From a virus (Duplodnaviria > Caudoviricetes), in the IMG/VR virus record IMGVR_UViG_3300032163_000049, positions 1 to 38,528 of that record: a stretch of 38,528 nucleotides of DNA, one strand, 5' to 3'. Under the pieces are notes generated by a model. It searched no databases. It worked only from the letters and a program-made list of their open reading frames with translations, and was not told the DNA's origin. Numbering within the stretch: the stretch's first letter is position 1; every line of letters starts with the position of its first letter. Positions 4,668-29,531 of the stretch are shown piece by piece. Both the position numbers and the translations under genes were made by a program.

Positions 4668-5099
4668 ATGTATCTAAGAGATTTCGTAGGGCTTCCGGGG
4701 AAGCTACGATGCTCATTCTGTCACGCCGTGAGGGAGCGCATGACAATGTGGATGCACGATTCAGGGATCGTAATCTACATCTGCTTTCATGGATGCCAAC
4801 ACTTCCCGGAGCCTTTCCGGGACACTGGCCTATCCGATAATTGGGATCGTGTGGATCCTTGGCAAGACTACAAGAGAAGTCAACCCCGTCTCCGAGGTCA
4901 TGCCAGTCAGAACCCGGACAGCCAGTCGTGGGGACCCCTACCCTACCCTACTCCTACCCTACCCTACTACTACTCTACTACTACCGGCCTCGATGGTAAC
5001 AACAAGGTAACAAGTTACCAAGGAGTTACCAACAGATCTCCACATGCGAGAGATGGCCTAACGCACTTTCCACTTGAGGCAGAGGGGGGCCGACGCTGA
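4668..5099 (+). CDS. Zn-binding protein whose 3' half carries repeat DNA
   Basis: CSFC...CFHGC; the PLPYPTPTLPYYYSTTT segment is encoded by CCCTA/CTA repeats. Confidence 0.5.
   Translation: MYLRDFVGLPGKLRCSFCHAVRERMTMWMHDSGIVIYICFHGCQHFPEPFRDTGLSDNWDRVDPWQDYKRSQPRLRGHASQNPDSQSWGPLPYPTPTLPYYYSTTTGLDGNNKVTSYQGVTNRSPHARDGLTHFPLEAEGGRR
4935..5031. repeat. (CCCTA)n/(CTA)n tract followed by a symmetric GGTAAC/GTTACC array; candidate replication origin
   Basis: C-runs at 4935-4964; GGTAAC at 4995 and 5006, GTTACC at 5014 and 5025, symmetric about 5012.5. Confidence 0.75.
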
Positions 5100-7578: not shown

Positions 7579-8259
7579 TCACCAGCGCAACTCTTCATTC
7601 TCTATAATCTGCTCTACTTCCTCATGGCTTTTCACTCTGATTGCTGTCGGCTCTATGATCGCCAGCTTCCATTGCCCACCCACATCCCCATCGACTCGTG
7701 CCGTGTCAAAGAGGCATCGCGCAACTAACTTGCTCAGATTCTGAATGTCCATATTCGGTTGATAGTATCGCGCGAAAAGATAACGCGCAATCATTGGTTT
7801 GCCATCTAGAACAAATCCGTTTCCTCCCAACTCCAGCCTGTATCCCCTCTGACTCGAAAGTCCGTAGCATCTGGGCTCCGAAAATCCAGTACCGATCTTG
7901 TTGAGTCCTCCCAAGATGAATCCGATATCAGGGAAATATTGGTAGGTGGGAGAATGAAAGGAAAAGGTCGGAACATTGCTCAGCCTGATGGCTTCTGCTT
8001 GGCAAAACGAGGCGAAGCCCTCTGTCAAGTCTGTGACACCTAACTCTGCCGCGCCTGAAATCCTAGCCTGATACTTGGCGACCAGATGTTGGGCATATCC
8101 AGCTTCTCCGCAAAGGAGAACCGCGGCATGATCTGTAAGCCTGATTAGTTTCTCAGCGATGTTCGTCTCGACTCTAATCACCCCAACATCAACTGTCTCT
8201 CTGCTGTCCGCACCAAGAACCATGAAGTCCGCTCCCTGCGCGGCAACTATGAGAGTCAT
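7579..8259 (-). CDS. Proteasome beta-subunit-like Ntn hydrolase without propeptide
   Basis: MTLIVAAQGADFMVLGADSRET...AEKL...LLCG...DGDVGG matches Thr1/Asp17/Lys33/Gly47 and the DxxxGG motif; ATGA-coupled start with GGAGG. Confidence 0.85.
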   Translation of the reverse strand: MTLIVAAQGADFMVLGADSRETVDVGVIRVETNIAEKLIRLTDHAAVLLCGEAGYAQHLVAKYQARISGAAELGVTDLTEGFASFCQAEAIRLSNVPTFSFHSPTYQYFPDIGFILGGLNKIGTGFSEPRCYGLSSQRGYRLELGGNGFVLDGKPMIARYLFARYYQPNMDIQNLSKLVARCLFDTARVDGDVGGQWKLAIIEPTAIRVKSHEEVEQIIENEELRW

Positions 8260-8834
8260 TTGCTCGATTTCCTCCCTCCAAGCCATTCGGAGACTATTTC
8301 TGAGATGATTCCCTCAATCGGTTTCTTGGTCTCTCTGCTTGCTCCCTCAAGAGAGCGGTATAGTTCTTCGCGCATTGGAATTATGAGAACCCTCAGATTC
8401 TCGCGCTTCACCTGTTCTCCCGTAACCCTCTTTCGATAATCTAGCAAGTCGGTATGCGGGAATCGTAGAGCATGCTGAATTATGTCTCTCTGTTTCTTGT
8501 TGGAGATGCCCACGAGCATCTTCGCCACATCGTACTGCCTGTCGTTTGGTTGAATTGGGTTCAATCTTTGTGCGGAGTCGAAGAGAACAAGACGCTTTCT
8601 TACCAGTTCCTGAACTCTGGGGTCGAGCTTCTTCAATCGGAGAATTGAATTGAGCAGCGAAGGAGACACCCTCAACTTCTTCGTCGCATCGTTCACCGAA
8701 CCGAAATCCTCAACAACCTCTGAGCACTTCTCTGCGATAGTCATCCAATCGAGACGTTTGGTCTTTCTTCCCTTCAAGTCATAGTAGAGCTCCGCAAGGA
8801 GCTTCTCGGTTCGCTTCGAAATCTCACGCGGCAC
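8256..8834 (-). CDS. ParB-like HTH + C-terminal RHH protein lacking the ParB/Srx domain
   Basis: GSVNDATKKLRVSPSLLNSILRLKKLDPRVQELV HTH; RVLIIPMREELYRSLEGASRETKKPIEGIISEIVSEWL RHH; GTG 8834 preferred. Confidence 0.75.
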   Translation of the reverse strand: MPREISKRTEKLLAELYYDLKGRKTKRLDWMTIAEKCSEVVEDFGSVNDATKKLRVSPSLLNSILRLKKLDPRVQELVRKRLVLFDSAQRLNPIQPNDRQYDVAKMLVGISNKKQRDIIQHALRFPHTDLLDYRKRVTGEQVKRENLRVLIIPMREELYRSLEGASRETKKPIEGIISEIVSEWLGGRKSSK

Positions 8835-10214: not shown

Positions 10215-10631
10215 ATGCATCCTGACGAGAGTAAGAGTCAAGAATCCAATCTTGAGCACTTTCATTCTGCTCTGAGATCGGAAGCCGAAACCTCATGGCA
10301 ACGGAACAACTACTTCTTGGTTGTCGTAAGTATTCTGCTGCTAGCATTCAGTCAGTTTCACCAGCGGGCCATTCAAGAGCTAGTGGTCATAGTGGGAATC
10401 GTCGTTAGTGCAACATGGATAATTGCCAATGACCGAAGTGCTTCCTATCTTGGATACTGGAAGCAACAAATCGGAACTCTGGAAACGAATCTAGGCCACT
10501 TGTTGGTATACCCAAAGAAAGATGTTCAAGGCATGGAAATGCGCAAAGCGCTCCGCATTGTGCCCTTAGCCTTTCTGTTGCTCTGGATTTCGCTGCTATT
10601 CCTTGTTCCTTTGGGTTTGTTGCAAAGCTGA
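10215..10631 (+). CDS. Three-TM membrane protein (defence-effector-like)
   Basis: SWQRNNYFL + TM1 + TM2 + YWKQQIGTLE helix + TM3; solitary gene. Confidence 0.7.
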   Translation: MHPDESKSQESNLEHFHSALRSEAETSWQRNNYFLVVVSILLLAFSQFHQRAIQELVVIVGIVVSATWIIANDRSASYLGYWKQQIGTLETNLGHLLVYPKKDVQGMEMRKALRIVPLAFLLLWISLLFLVPLGLLQS

Positions 10632-14446: not shown

Positions 14447-14747
14447 AGTCTTCTGGGCAACCGCTTTCTTATCCACTCTTTTGATCCGACTCCTAGCTGA
14501 CTATGTGAAGGTCAGACTCTACTGGAACTTCAAGAGTCACAAGATCACGATCATGCAATACCAGAAAGCAATCAAGAGCAAAGGCATCCACGTCCATCAC
14601 TTCGTCTGGGGAATCATCTGCGCCTTCGCTGCAATCGGAGCGCTCTATTGGAATCAAGTTTATCCTGGAGCCCTTCTCGCGGCGCTCGCAGCCAGCCTCA
14701 TCGCTTCAGAAGGAAAAGAACTCGTTCTGCAAAAGTGGGGGCCATAG
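14433..14747 (+). CDS. Membrane protein with HVHHFVWG motif (CTG start inferred)
   Basis: The frame of ORF 14481..14747 is open from CTG 14433, adding a hydrophobic N-terminal helix. Confidence 0.65.
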   Translation: MTPAEVFWATAFLSTLLIRLLADYVKVRLYWNFKSHKITIMQYQKAIKSKGIHVHHFVWGIICAFAAIGALYWNQVYPGALLAALAASLIASEGKELVLQKWGP

Positions 14748-15683: not shown

Positions 15684-16145
15684 ATGACCAAGAAAAGACG
15701 GAAACGCGGGGGTCGTGTCCGAAAGCGCCGGAAAGAAAGGGGCCATAGCCACACCCCCCCTTACTCTCCGCCGAGCGTGGATCCGAAGATTAAGGGTCAG
15801 TATCTGAAGGCTCAGATTAGGAAGATCGAACGGCAGCTCGCTCCTCTCGGCATCAAGATTAACATAAACTCGCTTGAGGATCTCAAGGCTTTCGTCAACA
15901 AGCTGATGCAGCTTCAGGCGGACAAGAAGATCGAAAGCCACGAAACGAGAGTCCTGAATGATTCATGCGAGATCTTGAGGAAGATCTATCAGCCAAGCGA
16001 TCTCGAGGAAACCGTGAATGAGCTTCTCAAAGAGGCGCAAAGTCTCCGAGAAAGTGTCTCTGATCTTAGGAAGCATGGCGTCGGCCAAGGCGGAGCTCGA
16101 GGCGGTACGCAACCCGATTCCTCAGGATCCAGTCCAGTGGGCTGA
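15684..16145 (+). CDS. Putative terminase small subunit
   Basis: Immediately upstream of and overlapping TerL; basic N-terminus, helical; called on position only. Confidence 0.5.
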   Translation: MTKKRRKRGGRVRKRRKERGHSHTPPYSPPSVDPKIKGQYLKAQIRKIERQLAPLGIKININSLEDLKAFVNKLMQLQADKKIESHETRVLNDSCEILRKIYQPSDLEETVNELLKEAQSLRESVSDLRKHGVGQGGARGGTQPDSSGSSPVG

Positions 16146-17634
16146 ACGCATCCGAATCCTCAAGGGCGCTCCGTTCAGCTTCCAGGATCGAGACTATCTG
16201 CTTCCGCTCTACCGCGACAACTCGCACCGAGTCATCATCGTGAAATCTCGGCAGATGGAGATGACCGAGTGGATCGTCAACTGGCTTCTCTATAAGCTGA
16301 CCACGTATCCCTTCATAACCGCAATCTACACCGCGCCGCGAATGGATCAGGTTTCAAGATTCAGCCACGACCGATTCCGCAAAGCCCTATTCGACAGCCC
16401 AGAGCTCCGCGACTATATCAGCAAGGCGCGAGAGGCAGAGCTTGGAGAAACCGCGATCGGCAGAATCCCCTTCTCGAACGGCTCAATCTGCTATCTCATC
16501 AGCGCATGGGGAGACTTCGACGCTCTAAGAAACATTCCAGCAGACTTCGCAGCCATAGATGAAATGCAGGACGTCCAGCAAGAAGCGATCCCTGTCCTTG
16601 AAGAGACACTCAGCCACAGCCAATTCGGAACAATGATCATGGTTGGAACCGCAAGCGATGAGGGCTCGGAATTCTCGCGACTCTGGCAACAAAGCGATAT
16701 GAACGAATGGGATCCAGAATCAGGCGCATGGATTCCGCAGAGACCTCAGAACCGATTCTACTCAGGATATCACATAGATCAACGCATGGCTCCGTGGATC
16801 AACAGCCTCCCGCCCACTCATCCCAACAGCATAGAAGCCAAACGCATCCGCTACCGAAGCGAGCGCAGATTCCTCAACGAAGTTCTCGGCCTCTTCTATC
16901 GGGGTCTTGCTAAGCCGTTGATCTCTGAGGATCTTCTAGCTTGCAGAGACTTCCAATTCGCCCTGATGGATCACCTTGATCCGCCATACGTCTCGTATGC
17001 TGGCATTGATTGGGGCGGCGGACAACACGCCTTCACCGTCGTCTGGATCATGGCGAAGGACGATAAAGACCGCTGGCGACTCATCTACGTTCGCAAATTC
17101 GATGAACGCGACCCCATGAAGCAAGTCCAGATCATCAGCAACCTCATCCCGCTCTTCAATGTGAAACAGGCCGTGGCAGACATCGGATACGGTGCCGTAC
17201 AAGTCAGCGAGCTCCAGAAGAAGTTCGCTGATCGACTCCTCGGCTGCCAATACACTCGCAGACCCGAGATCCCTCTTGAGCGTCGAACCTCAGACGAGTA
17301 TGGCAAGCGAGTCGCGCAGATGCTTCTCCTAGCTGACCGCTCATTCTGGATTGAGACCGCTATCGAGCTGATCAAGCATAAGGATCCAACTGGCGCAGTC
17401 AATCCGCTGCTAGTCATTCCATGGGCTGAACCGCTCGACGTCGAATGGATCATTGAGCAATTCACCTGCATCGAGATGGAGGAGCAGGAGACCGTTAGCG
17501 GCAAGAAGTATCATCACTACACGCATCCAGAAGGCGAACCTGACGACGCGCTTCACGGATTCATCTATGCGCTGATCGCTGATGCCTATGGCCGCATGGC
17601 TCCGCCTCTAGTCGTACAAGACCTATTCGGATGA
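16018..17634 (+). CDS. terL: Terminase large subunit (GpA-like)
   Basis: IVKSRQMEMTE (Walker A variant), FAAIDEMQD (Walker B), VGTA coupling motif, RNase H-like AGIDWGGG, VADIGYG, PDDALHG. Confidence 0.93.
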   Translation: MSFSKRRKVSEKVSLILGSMASAKAELEAVRNPIPQDPVQWAERIRILKGAPFSFQDRDYLLPLYRDNSHRVIIVKSRQMEMTEWIVNWLLYKLTTYPFITAIYTAPRMDQVSRFSHDRFRKALFDSPELRDYISKAREAELGETAIGRIPFSNGSICYLISAWGDFDALRNIPADFAAIDEMQDVQQEAIPVLEETLSHSQFGTMIMVGTASDEGSEFSRLWQQSDMNEWDPESGAWIPQRPQNRFYSGYHIDQRMAPWINSLPPTHPNSIEAKRIRYRSERRFLNEVLGLFYRGLAKPLISEDLLACRDFQFALMDHLDPPYVSYAGIDWGGGQHAFTVVWIMAKDDKDRWRLIYVRKFDERDPMKQVQIISNLIPLFNVKQAVADIGYGAVQVSELQKKFADRLLGCQYTRRPEIPLERRTSDEYGKRVAQMLLLADRSFWIETAIELIKHKDPTGAVNPLLVIPWAEPLDVEWIIEQFTCIEMEEQETVSGKKYHHYTHPEGEPDDALHGFIYALIADAYGRMAPPLVVQDLFG

Positions 17635-17924
17635 ATGAGAAAGAAGGAGAATACGCCGTGCCAAGTGGTGTCATATCGTTCAGTGGCAGCGACGAAGATA
17701 AGCAGAGGCTACGAGAATACTTCCGCACGGAAATCAAAGGGCACTTCCATAAAGTCCACATGAATCGTCTGCATTGGGCTTTCTATCGGTTGCGATACAA
17801 GCTGATGGGCAAGCCATGTCCACGATGCCAGGCCAGCATCAATTTCTGGAAGAACCGCGAGCGTCCGCCTTTGATGTTCTGTACGCCATCACGATGTGCG
17901 ATCTGCGGCAGATTCTCCGTTTAG
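17631..17924 (+). CDS. Small protein: copy of portal residues 295-330 fused to a Cys-rich Zn ribbon
   Basis: EYAVPSGVISFSGSDEDKQRLREYFRTEIKGHFHKV, 31/36 aa identical to the portal; CPRC...C...CAIC; ATGA-coupled to terL. Confidence 0.85.
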   Translation: MNEKEGEYAVPSGVISFSGSDEDKQRLREYFRTEIKGHFHKVHMNRLHWAFYRLRYKLMGKPCPRCQASINFWKNRERPPLMFCTPSRCAICGRFSV

Positions 17925-18037
17925 GCCTTGATCGTCTGCGAGCGCAAGCGGGAGAATCCCTCTCTCATCCAAAAAGCCCGATGATGGGATACAGACCTCA
18001 GGTCCCAGGTCCGGAGGGTTAGTATAGCATCCCATAA

Positions 18038-18064
18038 GGCGATGACGCCCGCGAGGGCTGAGCC
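18038..18064 (+). ncRNA. Kink-turn hairpin with GNRA tetraloop (cis element)
   Basis: GGC-GAU-GA-CGCCC-GCGA-GGGCU-GA-GCC: C-stem, 3-nt bulge, tandem G.A pairs, NC-stem. Confidence 0.6.
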
Positions 18065-18185
18065 GAGTTTTGTCTTTGTGAGACAGAGACCCTTGCCTCG
18101 AAAACAATGCCTCCGTTGCTACATGGTCTACGACACCAACATGAGAGAAGCAGCCTGTCCACATCGTGCGAAGGTGCACCTTTGA
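18042..18185 (+). CDS. Small Zn-binding protein (47 aa)
   Basis: MTPARAEPSFVFVRQRPLPRKQCLRCYMVYDTNMREAACPHRAKVHL; TGATG overlap with the next ORF. Confidence 0.5.
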   Translation: MTPARAEPSFVFVRQRPLPRKQCLRCYMVYDTNMREAACPHRAKVHL

Positions 18186-19141: not shown

Positions 19142-22100
19142 GTGAGTCTCCCGCAGCCCAGCGGCGAACATGCTGTGGCAACCGTCGCAGACACTTCTCC
19201 GTTAATTCAAGCAAACCAAGTTGAAGAGAAATTGGTGTCAGCATTACGCATAGTCTCAGCGGATCCCCTAGTTCGGGATAGGCTCAATCGCCTAGAGGAC
19301 AACACTATCACGAAAGGCGTCATGGACACGATCTATCCCTGGTGGTGGGATGAGAGAGAGTTTCCAAGACGCGCCGTCATGACAGAGTGGTTCTATAATC
19401 CGCTGAAAGGTCAGCCTAGGTACATAGATGTCTACCGTTACCGTAGCCTAGCGGCTTCTGAATGGGTAGCCATGTGCGTCATGACAATCATTGAAGAGGT
19501 CGCGCAGATTCCGTGGGAGATCATCCCGAAGGATCCTAAGCTCCGCGAGTCTCCGCCGGAAGATATTCTAGCGGACATTGATGAGGCCACATACTTCTTC
19601 AACAATCCGAACGACAACAAAGGCGAAACTCTGAACACTCTCCTGCGAGCTCTCATACGGGACAGCCTAGAACTTGACGCGGCAACGCTTGTGAAAGGCT
19701 TCTCACTGAACAGCTATGTGCAGCATCCCGCTGGCGGATTCGAACTTAAACCCCGAGGCCAAAGACAACTCAGCGAACTCTTCTGTCGAGACGGAGCTTC
19801 CTTCTTAAAAGAGACTGATGTCAACGGAATCGAATACCGCTACTGGCAGTACAGCTATTTGCATCCCGCTGTCGCACCGATCGAGTTCGACGTGAATGAG
19901 ATCGCCTATGCGATGCGTTACAACCGCTCATACAGCGTCTACGGCTGGGCTGAGACTCAAAGCGCCGAGACAATTCTGAACTGTCTCATCAATTCGGCTT
20001 TCACGAATGCCAGCATGTTCCAGGAATACGCTGTGCCCTCAGGCGTCGTTTCCTTCACTGGCAGCGAGGAAGATGAGCAGAGGCTACGGGAATACTTCCG
20101 CACGGAAATCAAAGGCCGCTTCCACAAGGTCGCCATACTCAACAAAGAAGCAAAATTCACACCGCTAACCTACACGAACCGAGACTTGGAGTTCATCAAA
20201 GGCCAAGAATGGTTCGCAAAAATCATGTGGGCGATCTACAAACTCACACCAAGCGAAGTCGGCTTCACCGATGATATTCGAGCTACAGGCGCGGCGATGT
20301 CCGCTCAAGGCACGATCCAAAAACGCAAAGCCATCCTGCCATTACTCAGACTCCTAGAACAGATCCTTAACAATCAAATCCTGAATGAAATCTCTGACCG
20401 CATAGTTTTGTCGTTCAAGTATGTTGACAAGGAACAGGAAGCTCTCGAAGATCAAATGGACTTCCAGAAGATTCAGCAAGGCATTATGAAAATCAACGAG
20501 TACCGTGCCAGAAAGAAGCTAGGCCCGTCTGTTCCATGGGGTGAGAAACCGCTTCAACTAACCCTCGCCGAACTGAAAGGAGGCCAACAGCCCGGCCTCT
20601 TCGGAGCTCCCAAGCCACATCTGAACATTCCAACAGGACCAGAAAAGGGCATACCGAAGATACCGCTCACAGCCGAAGACCAAGCCATCGTTGAAGGCAT
20701 GAAAGCATGGGGCGGCGTCCCAACTGAAGGCTACGATTTCGCAGAGGGCTCACTCGGCGGAAACAATCTCTACGCGGCTCCAGTTCTCACCTATGATAAC
20801 AGAACCGGCCAGGTGAAAATTCTCCCACAAGGCGCAATGACGATCCCAGGCCGACGCTACATAACCCGAGATGGAAAAGTATTCTATGTTCCACAACGGA
20901 AGCCGCTGCCCGTTAAACCATCTCAACCAACGAAGACGATCCTGCGTTCACCGAAGAACAAAGGGTTCCGAGATACCTCAGCCGATGTTCTGAAACAATA
21001 CTTGAAGCCGACTCGAGAACCTTTCATCGGCCCCTATGAAGGCGACCGGAAACCGCGACCTAAGCCCATGAGCGGAGTTGGCGGCAACCCAAAAGAATCA
21101 ATCCGGGACGGCATGATGCTGCCTGGAGAAAGCCCTGAAGAAATACGTCGAAGCCGCGATGCAACCGGGCCTAAAGCTGGGAGACCAAGAGCACGCCAAA
21201 GCGGCGGATCCGACCAGGACTACCCGATGGGCGCGTTAGCGTACAGGCCCGACGAGCCCGTTAGAGACAACGACCTCAGCCCAGAGCAAACCCCTGAAGG
21301 AATCGCCCGCGCTCGCGTCAGCAGGGAATATGAGCGGCCCACGAAACCCTTCGGACCAATCCATCACACTGACACGCAACGCACAGGACCAAAAGATTCC
21401 TATCAAGGCGGACCTGGCAACATCGGCGGCCAGTACAAGCGCAGGCAGGGCGGGCGCATACGCAAGATCGGCCATCCACCGCCCGGCGAAGGACCACAAT
21501 CTACAGGTGAAGTTTATCGTGGCAAACAGCAGCGGAAAGAGAAAGTTGACCTGCATCGAGGCGGGATGGGAGCTCATCGCTGGGAACGTGACGAAAGCAA
21601 TGTTCCAATCGCAACCGTGACAGAAGAATCCGGCGCTCACATTGATCCGCACTACATGAAGAAACCTTACCCGGGCAGACATCGAGAAATCACTGAAGGC
21701 GGCGGTTATGATGTTGAATCACGAATCGTTCCCACACGGGCAGGAACTCCGAAAATCATTGACGCTTCAATTCCTCATGATGACCGCGCCTATCTAGATC
21801 GTAAGTTTGTTCGTGTGAAGCTGTCTAAAGCTGATTTGAACATTGACAACGTGTGGAAAACCCATGACATGTCTGAAGCGCGAATGAACGAATACTTTGA
21901 CATGTTCGATGAAGAACGGAAGGAACACCCAGGTTTCACGCGGGAGCAGATTTGGCAAATCGTCAAAGACCACATGCGGGAGAAAGGTTTAGCGCCGAAA
22001 GCTCGCAAACGACCAACACAGCCAGATAACGCTCCAATCGCCCCGCTCGCCCAGCCAAGAGAGAACTTGGATCCTACAGGGGGCGCAAGCACCGAGCAGG

Positions 22101-23683
22101 CACCAAGGCTGAAGCCTACGCCCACGATTCCTAGAGGACCGAAATATCCGAAAGATGTTCCACCAGTTCAGCCCGATACAGGCGCAATAGGCGCTATGAG
22201 AGCAACAGCTCCAAGCGGAGCAAAATATGTTCTACGGGATAAGCGGGGAGCTCCACCACCCTTCAAGAAATCTGAGAGCACGGATACGGGCAGCCTCGGC
22301 CCAGACCACCGCGAAACCCTCGGCTACACGGAACGTGACTTGTCGAAAGTTCACGATAATGTGCAGCGCAGCGCATCAGCCCCAGAAAGCAAACAGGTCA
22401 ACGCCTACGATACTCGAGAGGAATGGAAAGGCGGACGACTCGAGACGCGCCTCATATCCGCGCCCAAGAAGGCTCAGATCCGCGAGGCCGCCCGACTCGG
22501 ACGGAAGCCTCTCAGCAGCTCAGCCAGTGCGAAACTCAGCCCCCTAGATGTTAAGATGGTTCCGCCAATTCCTAGCAAGGCAGGGGGCAAACGACGCGAA
22601 GCCTCATTCCTCAAGACGCTCATTCCACCGCATGATTTGTACGTGGAGCCGTTTGCAGGCGGCGCAGCCCTATTCTTCATGCTGGACGATCCTGGGAGAG
22701 TCGTTCTAAACGATGTAAACCCAAGATTCACTAAGGTATGGCAGTGGATCAAACAGGCTACGCCCGAACAAGCAAAATCCATGATGAACCGACCTTGGGC
22801 AGCGACAAGAGAAAGATGGTTCCATGTACGAGATCAGTACAAGCCCAAGACTCTGGACGATGAGCTTTGGCAGCTCCTCTACGTGACCCGTCACAGCTTC
22901 ATGAACCGCGGGGATACTTGGCGCGGGAATCTTGGTTCTCCAGATCGAGAGAGGTCGCAGAATAGCGCTCCAAATTGGCTGAGCAGGCTTGATCAGTACA
23001 AAGAGCAGCTATCGCAAGTCAAGATAGAGAACAAAGACTGGAAGGAGATTGTTCATCAGTACGATTCACCAAACACGTTCTTCTACTTTGACCCGCCCTA
23101 TGAAGAAAAGTTCGTGCCCGATCTCATCAAGACCCTGCCCACTTTGAAGGGGAAGTGGCTGCTTAGTTTCGGCGAGAACGAACGGTTAGCACGTGGTTTG
23201 TCTTCAAAGGGAATGCATACCTTCATTGTGCCTGTCACGAACACAATCAACAAGCCAACAGGAGAAAGGCGCACGATGCGCCGAGAACTCATCGCCGCCA
23301 ATTACCCGATCGATGTGCCGAAAGATCTGGTGTTCAAAGCGGCTGCGATTGGTTCTGAGCACACGCACTCCGACACTTTCCGAGGCCCCGTCAAAGCCGA
23401 GTATGGCTTGGCTAGGCGCCTCACAGAAATCATGAAAGCCTTCATAGCTGGCCGGTTGACGCGAAGCCAAGCCCTCACGGAAGGCCACAAAGCCATAGAT
23501 GACAACCAAGCCCGAATCGCAGAGATCGCTAGGAAACATGCAAGGCGAGCTATCGGCAAAGACGTTGTTGAGCTCGCGCCAGAGGTTGCGGGCCGCTTAG
23601 AACAGATCCGAACCCAATCCCTCAGCGACTTCGACAGGATCCTCGAGGACGCGAACTCATCCCGTATCGCGGGGACGCTTTGA
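19142..23683 (+). CDS. Portal protein fused to a long disordered region, a Dam-like (D12 class) N6-adenine DNA methyltransferase and a C-terminal helical domain
   Basis: Portal about aa 59-480 (WVAMCV...IPWEI, NPN, VYGWAE, VPSGVV, DLEF, PSEVG, INEYR); MTase aa 1139-1388 (AGGK, YVEPFAGG, LNDVN, FYFDPPY, ELIAANY); single stop-free frame. Confidence 0.92.
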   Translation: MSLPQPSGEHAVATVADTSPLIQANQVEEKLVSALRIVSADPLVRDRLNRLEDNTITKGVMDTIYPWWWDEREFPRRAVMTEWFYNPLKGQPRYIDVYRYRSLAASEWVAMCVMTIIEEVAQIPWEIIPKDPKLRESPPEDILADIDEATYFFNNPNDNKGETLNTLLRALIRDSLELDAATLVKGFSLNSYVQHPAGGFELKPRGQRQLSELFCRDGASFLKETDVNGIEYRYWQYSYLHPAVAPIEFDVNEIAYAMRYNRSYSVYGWAETQSAETILNCLINSAFTNASMFQEYAVPSGVVSFTGSEEDEQRLREYFRTEIKGRFHKVAILNKEAKFTPLTYTNRDLEFIKGQEWFAKIMWAIYKLTPSEVGFTDDIRATGAAMSAQGTIQKRKAILPLLRLLEQILNNQILNEISDRIVLSFKYVDKEQEALEDQMDFQKIQQGIMKINEYRARKKLGPSVPWGEKPLQLTLAELKGGQQPGLFGAPKPHLNIPTGPEKGIPKIPLTAEDQAIVEGMKAWGGVPTEGYDFAEGSLGGNNLYAAPVLTYDNRTGQVKILPQGAMTIPGRRYITRDGKVFYVPQRKPLPVKPSQPTKTILRSPKNKGFRDTSADVLKQYLKPTREPFIGPYEGDRKPRPKPMSGVGGNPKESIRDGMMLPGESPEEIRRSRDATGPKAGRPRARQSGGSDQDYPMGALAYRPDEPVRDNDLSPEQTPEGIARARVSREYERPTKPFGPIHHTDTQRTGPKDSYQGGPGNIGGQYKRRQGGRIRKIGHPPPGEGPQSTGEVYRGKQQRKEKVDLHRGGMGAHRWERDESNVPIATVTEESGAHIDPHYMKKPYPGRHREITEGGGYDVESRIVPTRAGTPKIIDASIPHDDRAYLDRKFVRVKLSKADLNIDNVWKTHDMSEARMNEYFDMFDEERKEHPGFTREQIWQIVKDHMREKGLAPKARKRPTQPDNAPIAPLAQPRENLDPTGGASTEQAPRLKPTPTIPRGPKYPKDVPPVQPDTGAIGAMRATAPSGAKYVLRDKRGAPPPFKKSESTDTGSLGPDHRETLGYTERDLSKVHDNVQRSASAPESKQVNAYDTREEWKGGRLETRLISAPKKAQIREAARLGRKPLSSSASAKLSPLDVKMVPPIPSKAGGKRREASFLKTLIPPHDLYVEPFAGGAALFFMLDDPGRVVLNDVNPRFTKVWQWIKQATPEQAKSMMNRPWAATRERWFHVRDQYKPKTLDDELWQLLYVTRHSFMNRGDTWRGNLGSPDRERSQNSAPNWLSRLDQYKEQLSQVKIENKDWKEIVHQYDSPNTFFYFDPPYEEKFVPDLIKTLPTLKGKWLLSFGENERLARGLSSKGMHTFIVPVTNTINKPTGERRTMRRELIAANYPIDVPKDLVFKAAAIGSEHTHSDTFRGPVKAEYGLARRLTEIMKAFIAGRLTRSQALTEGHKAIDDNQARIAEIARKHARRAIGKDVVELAPEVAGRLEQIRTQSLSDFDRILEDANSSRIAGTL

Positions 23684-24254: not shown

Positions 24255-24716
24255 TTGATCAGCGAGCAGCTAATCGAGGAAATCCTAGCTCAGAAGAGCA
24301 CTCCTCGCACCAGTCCGCTATTCGTATTGCCAGCCGATGATCAAAAAGGATTGCTGAACGAAAATCCATCGAACTCTTCCCGATCCCGAATGTATGTGAG
24401 AAGCAAATTTGGAAATGGCCTAGAAACGGGTTGCCTCCAATCGTTGAAGTACTCAAGAAACAGAGTCAAGAAAGCAGTACAACTCTTGCGAAAGAAACAC
24501 TACTTAGTATTGCCGCTTGATGGAACCTGTAAAGTAATCAATCTGATTGCTGTGAGTCCTGACTCGCAAAGACTTGTCATACAAGTCAAATCAGGGAACG
24601 CGAAGCCGACGCAGCAGGAACGAATCGCATTGAAGTTTCTGGCTTCACGATTTCAAGCTAGAGCAGAGGTCTGGACATTCAAGAAGAGACAGCCCCTCAA
24701 AGTTGAGACCCTATGA
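24255..24716 (+). CDS. Second, degenerate Hjc-like PD-(D/E)xK protein
   Basis: LLRKKHYLV...VINLIAV...VIQVKSG...QERIAL; true start uncertain. Confidence 0.65.
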   Translation: MISEQLIEEILAQKSTPRTSPLFVLPADDQKGLLNENPSNSSRSRMYVRSKFGNGLETGCLQSLKYSRNRVKKAVQLLRKKHYLVLPLDGTCKVINLIAVSPDSQRLVIQVKSGNAKPTQQERIALKFLASRFQARAEVWTFKKRQPLKVETL

Positions 24717-28271: not shown

Positions 28272-29531
28272 ATGAGCCACCTGAAATTAGTTGACCCCGA
28301 ACAAGGCAGAGCTACAGGAGCAGGCGGAGGAGAAGCTGCTCGACCATACTACTCCACAGTGGACAGAGCACTTCTAACACCGCCCGTTCAAGGAGGAACA
28401 CCCGCAGGTATCCTTGCTGGCCTAGTTGGATTAGCAGCCTTCCCTGAAGGCACCGTAATCTACGAAGGCTTGAAGGATAACGGGGAACTCGGCCTAGACC
28501 ACCGCCAAATGTACCTCGGCTGGATTCGCAAGAAGATGCGTCTACGCAGCCTACGCACCAAAGGCTACTTGGACTCAACCAGCGCCATCGTTCACACCAC
28601 AACCGACCAAGAGATCATAGATACCACACGCCGAGAAACACCACTCTTAGAGCTCATCGCCCAAGAAACCGCCCGAGGCAAAGTCGCCAACTACGATGTA
28701 CTAACCGCCAGAGCATCGGCTTTTGGTGTGAGTGAAACAACCGCAGCCAAGACGCCGGGTAGCGACACCTATGTGAACGCCTCAAAACCCGTCAACATTT
28801 TCACAGCATGGGGTGGATGGACTGACTTGGGCTTAGCTACAATGGCAAGCCAGTACCCAACCCGTGACGCGAGAGCCATCGAAATCCGCAACAAGACATG
28901 GAGCCTCAACGAAACTGATGAGAACGAAATCCTCAACGGAGGAACTACACTTGAATCAGCTTTCAACTCAGGCGGAGACAACTTAGGATTCATTGGCATA
29001 AGAGCTGAAATCATCGGCTCATCCGGAACCTACGCACAGCTACAGTCAAACCTGAACGGCGCAGATGCCTCAGACACTGACATAGACAACATGATCGCGC
29101 AAATGGTCCTGTTGAACGTCAAACCCAACTTGGCCGTCACGGACTTGATGACATGGCAGAAGATCAAGCAGCTAATGATGTCCATTGTCCGGTACGCGAA
29201 CCCTGAGACTGAGATCGCTTGGGGTCTCAAAGCACTCGCATGGGCTACGCCTTACGGTGTCATGCCGTTCATAGGCAGCAAGTTCATGCCCGCCACAGCA
29301 GGCAGCCGAGAAATCATCTTCCTCGACACCAAGTTCCTCGCGCAAAGGCTACTCTTGGACAGCACGATGGAGATGCTTGCGAAAGTCAGCATACAGCAAC
29401 CCTTCGTCATCAAACGATTCTTCAACTCCATAGACAAGACAGACTCGAAGCCACCCAGCTACGTCTACAACACAAACCCGACCTCAACGGACGCCACGTC
29501 GAAGATGGGCCGCATCTACAACTTATCATAG
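28272..29531 (+). CDS. Major capsid protein (HK97 fold)
   Basis: Position after protease/scaffold; RRETPLLELI, ENEILNG, FIGIR, TPYGVMPFIGSKFMP, IIFLDT. Confidence 0.88.
   Translation: MSHLKLVDPEQGRATGAGGGEAARPYYSTVDRALLTPPVQGGTPAGILAGLVGLAAFPEGTVIYEGLKDNGELGLDHRQMYLGWIRKKMRLRSLRTKGYLDSTSAIVHTTTDQEIIDTTRRETPLLELIAQETARGKVANYDVLTARASAFGVSETTAAKTPGSDTYVNASKPVNIFTAWGGWTDLGLATMASQYPTRDARAIEIRNKTWSLNETDENEILNGGTTLESAFNSGGDNLGFIGIRAEIIGSSGTYAQLQSNLNGADASDTDIDNMIAQMVLLNVKPNLAVTDLMTWQKIKQLMMSIVRYANPETEIAWGLKALAWATPYGVMPFIGSKFMPATAGSREIIFLDTKFLAQRLLLDSTMEMLAKVSIQQPFVIKRFFNSIDKTDSKPPSYVYNTNPTSTDATSKMGRIYNLS

Follow-up and report, generated by a model that had tools for sequence, protein, structure and literature searches.

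A portal clip fragment in a small gene behind terL of a tailed virus, and its likely origin in a sister lineage

Why would a tailed virus carry part of its portal gene a second time, within a small open reading frame of its own? This question is raised by a 38,528-nt stretch of DNA (IMG/VR record IMGVR_UViG_3300032163_000049, hereafter the window), a 38.5-kb tailed-virus fragment that contains terL, the portal gene, a MuF-like gene, the major capsid protein gene (28272-29531) and head-tail genes. The window may represent an incomplete virus: the contig is probably incomplete, and its record set (G000) is a single contig. Immediately behind the gene for the large terminase subunit (terL; 16018-17634, plus strand; PF05876, PF17289, phrog_675) lies ORF97 (17631-17924, plus strand), a chimeric ORFan of 97 aa composed of a 6-aa leader, a portal clip fragment and a Zn-ribbon-like half. 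The first-pass annotation of this DNA had taken the fragment to be a selected copy of the virus's own portal. As set out below, we consider ORF97 to be, with a probability of roughly 0.55, a chimera of recent origin that joins a portal fragment from a sister virus to a small Zn-ribbon ORF and is carried as near-neutral cargo.

The repeated portal segment

The repeat itself was reproduced in all particulars given by the first-pass annotation. Positions 17649-17756 align with 20024-20131 of the portal gene (both on the plus strand) over 108 nt, with 17 nucleotide differences and 31/36 identical amino acids; nine codons differ synonymously, including an AGT/TCA serine pair, and five amino acids are changed (I/V, S/T, D/E, K/E and H/R). 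The self-match is recovered by blastn at E 3e-27 and its ends are sharp, the four 30-nt flanking blocks agreeing at just 5-11 of 30 positions. What shifted was the residue numbering: judged from the frames of relatives, the portal very likely starts at the TTG at 19232, and the segment therefore corresponds to residues 265-300 instead of the 295-330 given earlier.

The portal gene (19232-23683, plus strand; PF04860, PF02086) is uninterrupted in its 5' part and encodes a core of ~460 aa, to which a long extension is appended that includes a D12-class methyltransferase domain (PF02086). The extension, of ~1000 aa with its D12-class adenine methyltransferase domain, is missing at this place in the closest relative, L003; both L003 and L005 have ~1.3 kb of additional DNA near window position 24305 that the window lacks. 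The core matches the phage 812 portal (8q7d) at E 3.7e-13 by sequence and E 7e-15 by fold, with HK97 and other portals next.

In the AF2 model of the portal, with helices at residues 241-265, 279-293 and 316-335, the segment lies between two stem helices (241-265 and 316-335), at a local pLDDT of ~40-60. According to the available part of PMC4493910, the clip of T4 gp20 joins two stem helices, consists of three strands and one helix with an inter-subunit sheet, and is where terminase and neck dock. Because the segment sits between stem helices, where the T4 clip joins them, the copy is, on this model, derived from the clip; the clip position claimed earlier is likewise borne out by the AF2 model together with the 8q7d alignment, at low local confidence. 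As in T4 gp20, the 812 portal (8q7d) and HK97 (8fql), the copied residues are flanked in the portal by stem helices, and the clip helix is among them; the copy, however, covers 265-300 of a stretch that runs to ~315, and has neither stem nor ring to hold it. Its left end is near a domain boundary, the end of the stem helix, whereas on the right it stops ~15 residues short of the second stem helix. The strands do not resolve in the model and were assigned by analogy with T4; on that analogy the copy would comprise the first clip strand, the helix and the start of the next strand, and would lack, of the complete three-strand, one-helix unit, the greater part of the second strand and the whole of the third.

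Two further portal-like proteins, P0014 and P0015 (259 and 234 aa), were encountered in which most of the stem-clip-stem region is missing in the alignment. Full portals alone were returned with P0014 as query, and our searches did not find the genomic context of either protein.

Portal alleles and the substitutions of the copy

Scans of viral and metagenome contigs yielded 19 distinct portal alleles, the window's own included, and two more were added later, for 21 in total. All clip matches fell in portal genes, except those of the window and its twin assembly. Among the 19 alleles, the copy is nearest to those of L017 and L024 (13 nt differences), followed by L022 and L023 (15), the window's own portal (17) and L003 (22), with the rest at 24-38; the two later alleles differ from it by 36. 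The attribution of the copy to the virus's own portal thus did not hold, since four alleles are closer. By halves, the copy differs from L017 by 6 on the left and from L022 by 3 on the right, where the own portal differs by 12 and 5, respectively; in a tree of the 108 nt the copy and L022 are split from the rest at 87% UFBoot, support elsewhere being weak. At 13/17 of the differing sites, one or more other alleles among the 19 have the base of the copy, although some of these matches, being to distant alleles, may be coincidental; the AGY serine codon is present in five other alleles and Ile9 in three. The exact donor is absent among the sampled alleles, the best of which has 13 differences. 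A portal contig with 14 differences across exactly the 108-nt stretch is present in run X1, so that such an allele co-occurs with the window virus.

Taken pairwise, the copy and the own portal give a dN/dS of 0.15 (Fisher p 0.0004), which had been read as protein-level constraint on ORF97. Since the copy is nearer to sister alleles and its bases are mostly shared with them, this value mostly measures divergence between portal alleles; the apparent selection on the repeat is, on this comparison, mostly inherited from their diversity. What is private to the copy looks different. All four sites private to it are nonsynonymous (T12S, E15D, E18K and R32H), although Ser12 also occurs in the distant portal L069. 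E18 and R32 are invariant in 21/21 portal alleles, and both are altered in the copy, one with a reversal of charge. Among 15 alleles that have a neighbour within 16 nt, 13 carry no private residue, one carries one and one carries two, as compared with four in the copy. The case for selection on the copy therefore did not survive the comparison with sister alleles; judged from these alignments, the copy has left portal-level constraint, though weaker selection may act on it.

Measured against the four nearest alleles, eight differing sites are left, four synonymous and four nonsynonymous; the probability of at least four synonymous sites out of eight under neutrality is 0.08-0.18, computed from one ORF97 allele and not significantly different from the neutral expectation; as the donor proper is not among the sampled alleles, the synonymous share of these sites is overstated. 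In BLOSUM62, each of the four private changes scores at least 0, an outcome that neutral single-base changes give with P 0.05-0.08. This tells against near-neutral cargo, as do the frame and coding orientation of the copied fragment, which has neither stop nor indel. A single allele of ORF97 is known, from which selection on the gene may be gauged only indirectly.

The slot behind terL and the portal loci of relatives

The terL stop overlaps the ORF97 start as ATGA in the ORF list, in agreement with the translational coupling noted in the first-pass annotation. L003, whose TerL is 98.5% identical, has the same ATG and first three codons, followed by other sequence and no ORF97. The slot start (17631-17648, plus strand) is thus common to both viruses, and the start codon would predate ORF97, to judge by this alignment; because L003 shares it, the coupling to terL is a property of the slot and does not speak for ORF97 itself. 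The slot being coupled in this way, ORF97 is probably translated; among the data sets listed as containing it, none was of RNA.

Downstream of the portal fragment, the 54-aa C-terminal half (17760-17924, plus strand) has its own in-frame ATG at 17760, a basic and aromatic helix, and the Cys-rich segment CPRC...CAIC, which is present as first described. By ESM features it is closest to Zn-ribbon proteins, the best of them scoring 0.91, which is a lead only, and it is likely that the half was a small Zn-ribbon ORF of earlier standing onto which the portal fragment may have been grafted. We detected no homologue of ORF97 among the proteins of 53-170 aa in a set of 5.8 billion, nor of its C-terminal half among those of 29-95 aa. 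A search of 1.84 billion representatives returned ORF97 itself, seven portals, one unrelated repeat protein and nothing else. No family for ORF97 was found in Pfam, PHROGs or NCBIfam, the ESM Atlas held no match of at least 0.9 to the whole protein, and viral and metagenome contigs contained no homologue beyond ORF97 itself and portals. In the six frames of the fetched loci, the best other match had E 1.4.

All 13 relatives (13/13) in which terL and portal are both in view lack a second clip copy and have other genes in the interval, which measures ~0.2-3.3 kb. Among ten related virus records, which are fragments (CheckV 9-64% complete), nine have a single match, located in the long portal frame, and one has none. 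In runs X1 and X2, a relative joins the end of terL to position 18185 with 10 other letters between, marking 17632-18184 as a dispensable cassette, and in run X3 a relative carries 168 other letters instead of ORF97; relatives in runs X1-X4 either lack the cassette or carry a replacement. The slot behind terL is, as these contigs indicate, hypervariable. The ORFs between copy and portal encode small Zn-finger or unassigned proteins. The non-coding stretch 17933-18050 is common to contigs of runs X1-X4 and X6 with differing flanks, and holds what we take to be a C/D-box-like GATGA...CTGA pair. A structured RNA at 17930-18075 was considered and rejected (no Rfam match, a folding z of 0.65, and no promoter or terminator match).

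Taken together, the repeat in ORF97 is real and traceable, and these sequence comparisons make it likely that ORF97 is strain-specific and recently made. The alternative that the first-pass annotation had itself raised, a scar from a related virus's portal with no conserved homologues, largely describes what was found.

The portal loci of sister viruses carry insertions of their own. Seven frame-breaking hairpin inserts of 20-32 nt were found within the 5' portion of the portal genes at four loci (L007:14443-14462, 14489-14520 and 14561-14591; L017:5227-5248; L022:1761-1782; L025:4660-4680 and 4698-4728), whereas the window carries an intron-less allele. The removal that restores the full portal peptide falls in bulge-helix-bulge (BHB) register for 7/7 inserts; in this motif the cut falls after the second bulge base. 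The central helix has 4/4 pairs in six inserts and 3/4 in one, the inner helix has 4-10 pairs, and the outer helix is weak. A strict scan in which the outer helix had to be perfect found none of the inserts, with 0-5 background matches per control, so it is the frame-restoring test that speaks for micro-introns. The inserts fit the tRNA type and are candidate host-spliced micro-introns. In archaea, the mRNA of cbf5 is known to be spliced (available part of PMC2738675), and no report of BHB introns within the portal gene of a virus turned up in the partial coverage of the literature that we searched.

Just upstream of the same four portals lie free-standing LAGLIDADG-like ORFs (L022:1115-1591, L007:13839-14303, L017:4565-5068 and L025:4028-4519, all on the minus strand), which match PF00961 at E 2e-6 to 4e-3, two of the four above the curated cut-off. 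Across L001-L038 and the window, LAGLIDADG matches were confined to these four insert loci, with a profile built from them and with short upstream DNA for some of the other loci. The joint presence of LAGLIDADG genes and micro-introns is suggestive of collaborative homing. In L022 (977-1099), and also in L023, an orphan piece of a portal 5' end, almost identical to the intron-less allele of the window, is followed by the LAGLIDADG gene and then by a new portal 5' end, which looks like a recent gene-replacement event. Other irregularities were seen in these genes: one additional T, found alike in the portal frames of two different viruses (L017 near 5300 and L025 near 4775), at the site where L007 has an insert and possibly a +1 frameshift site; a larger insert that interrupts the portal ~50 codons upstream of the clip in L030, L031 and L033; and, in L017 from 1366 onward, a different large-terminase-like gene beside a near-identical portal, without a tblastn match to the TerL of the window.

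An archaeal host may be proposed for the window virus from a proteasome-beta-like gene, the resemblance to HSTV-1, an ESM cluster and the BHB-type inserts of relatives. The haloarchaeal virus HSTV-1 has the best E-value among the best 12 of 155 matches, and the ESM cluster, which is rich in Bathyarchaeota, is a lead only. The search of GTDB genomes for a host found no relative. The proteasome-beta-like gene (PF00227) lies at 7579-8286 on the minus strand, and a gene of the 8xMP family (PF24838) at 10215-10631 on the plus strand.

Origin and possible roles of ORF97

The sequence of events that we favour would begin in a co-infection. About 108 bp of the portal gene of a co-infecting sister virus would have recombined into the variable slot behind terL, falling in frame between the existing start codon of the slot and the small Zn-ribbon ORF. 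The fragment would since have gained about four substitutions, with drift from portal constraint begun, and ORF97 is most likely tolerated cargo with hardly any dedicated function, if it has one at all. These viruses recombine freely in the portal gene, the two nearest alleles, L017 and L022, have LAGLIDADG genes beside the portal, and L022/L023 hold an orphan portal piece, so that the stray portal DNA may plausibly have come from break repair during co-infection. Mosaicism around phage homing endonucleases and collaborative homing are on record (available part of PMC10448857), and the sister viruses resemble such cases in their free-standing LAGLIDADG genes by the portal, mosaic alleles and, in L022/L023, an orphan fragment; the window, in contrast, has no LAGLIDADG match, and its copy is internal and rebuilds no broken gene, so that the link between the copy and an endonuclease is circumstantial. 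Endonuclease-driven gene replacement of the kind seen in L022 was rejected for the window, where the segment is internal, the portal is whole and a search of all six frames found no LAGLIDADG match. A template/variable-repeat pair of a diversity-generating retroelement was likewise rejected: A stands at 8/17 differing sites in the copy and 1/17 in the portal, and the differences are not confined to template adenines. No reverse transcriptase was found among the 47 window ORFs scanned, the contig being probably incomplete.

The donor could instead have been at home. In an explanation that we hold to be rather improbable, the copy was made from an earlier allele of the virus's own portal, which was later replaced in part by recombination with an L003-like portal. 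Such an origin is possible because the own portal shares with the copy right-half bases that L003 lacks: the two agree at 6/8 bases where the own portal differs from L003, all at positions 54-96, while the next six 54-nt bins differ between own and L003 portals by 0-2 nt, and portal alleles are mosaic. The same right-half bases are found, however, in L017 and L022, so that a source within the lineage is not needed, and patches of 7-8 differences between own and L003 portals are also seen elsewhere in the gene. An own-lineage source would moreover alter the donor alone, the synonymous excess remaining inherited. A role at the level of DNA, with the reading frame incidental, in which the copy serves as a silent template for gene conversion or, as a decoy, diverts a homing endonuclease or a CRISPR guide, we judge highly improbable. 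LAGLIDADG genes do adjoin the portal in this family, and the patch common to copy and own portal ends inside the copied stretch; yet the candidate endonuclease sites (the micro-intron positions) are ~650-750 nt upstream of the clip, 0/21 alleles have an insert in the 108 nt (in searches that require intact motifs), and a second target site would be expected to be cut too. Nor is the stretch a local hot spot of diversity, a candidate that fell because its mean of 7.8-8.0 differences per 54 nt lies inside the range of 4.8-9.8. That ORF97 is an assembly chimera is scarcely credible. It is known from two near-identical assemblies alone, and related viruses co-occur in samples, but an independent reassembly of run X1, possibly the source sample, produced a 703-nt contig (17602-18304, depth 74) that crosses both junctions with no difference, which makes misassembly unlikely; a contig of run X2 crosses the right junction, and the four private bases are found in no portal allele.

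The functional possibilities centre on the clip. ORF97 might be kept because its strand-helix unit binds a partner of the clip, with the Zn ribbon as carrier, acting either as a decoy for a portal-sensing host protein of the Avs4/Avs11 type or as a poison to sister viruses, at their portal rings or at the docking of their terminase; we regard this as possible though doubtful. It draws on the clip position of the segment and the docking of terminase and neck to the T4 clip (PMC4493910, available part), on the conservative nature of the four private changes, and on the in-frame fragment and its overlap with terL. A fragment from a sister lineage would also suit interference with sister viruses, and a decoy is conceivable because portals are sensed by Avs4 and Avs11, for which the portal is the sensed pattern (10.64898/2026.01.04.697583, available part). 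In that part a portal-fragment decoy is not described, and the receptors are said to read folds over extended interfaces, whereas the clip in the copy is incomplete and two of its invariant residues are altered, one with reversed charge. The single-sequence AF2 model of ORF97 is poor as well (pLDDT 53, pTM 0.25), neither a homologue nor persistence in any relative was found, and a clip 86% identical to the own one, made from the same operon, would also be expected to strike the virus's own assembly. A variant in which the mimicry dates from the birth of the gene, the clip strand and helix being taken from a competing sister portal, set on a Zn ribbon and made with the terminase so as to jam sister portals or absorb a host receptor, seems unlikely to us.

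The nearest precedent for a decoy comes from the ankyrin-repeat ORFs of Bodo saltans virus, for which such a role has been proposed for similar fragment fusions (available part of PMC5871332). There, as in ORF97, an accessory ORF carries a fragment of an essential viral gene fused to its 5' end, and the virus family abounds in homing endonucleases. In Bodo saltans virus, however, such genes are numerous and share a repeated ankyrin handle, and we found one ORFan in one strain, in which the fragment is structural and nearer to the alleles of sister viruses and the carrier is without homologue. Small ORFs matching a virus's own proteins were sought in the window, nine related records (three in part, G007 left out) and six metagenome loci, in a scan that missed the L022 fragment and is thus not exhaustive. 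The window has the one case and no other own-protein fragment gene; there were none in 8/9 related records, the ninth having a single match of 39% identity, and none in 6/6 loci. The available part of a preprint on phage accessory genes (10.1101/2023.04.06.535777) covers host decoys alone, and we found no portal-clip decoy gene in the literature searched, whose coverage was partial.

ORF97, read as a young chimera, is a traceable case of a viral ORFan arising by capture of a piece of a core gene. Its history also bears on how such repeats are read: when a copy and the resident gene are compared as a pair, a low dN/dS can be a legacy of allele diversity, which matters for all claims of selected fragments of this kind. 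Were ORF97 to prove a binder of terminase, of the portal or of a sensor in the host, it would count as an inhibitor of the portal clip whose donor lineage is known. And should the inserts in the portal genes of its relatives prove to be micro-introns, an essential virion gene would rely on the tRNA-splicing enzymes of the host.
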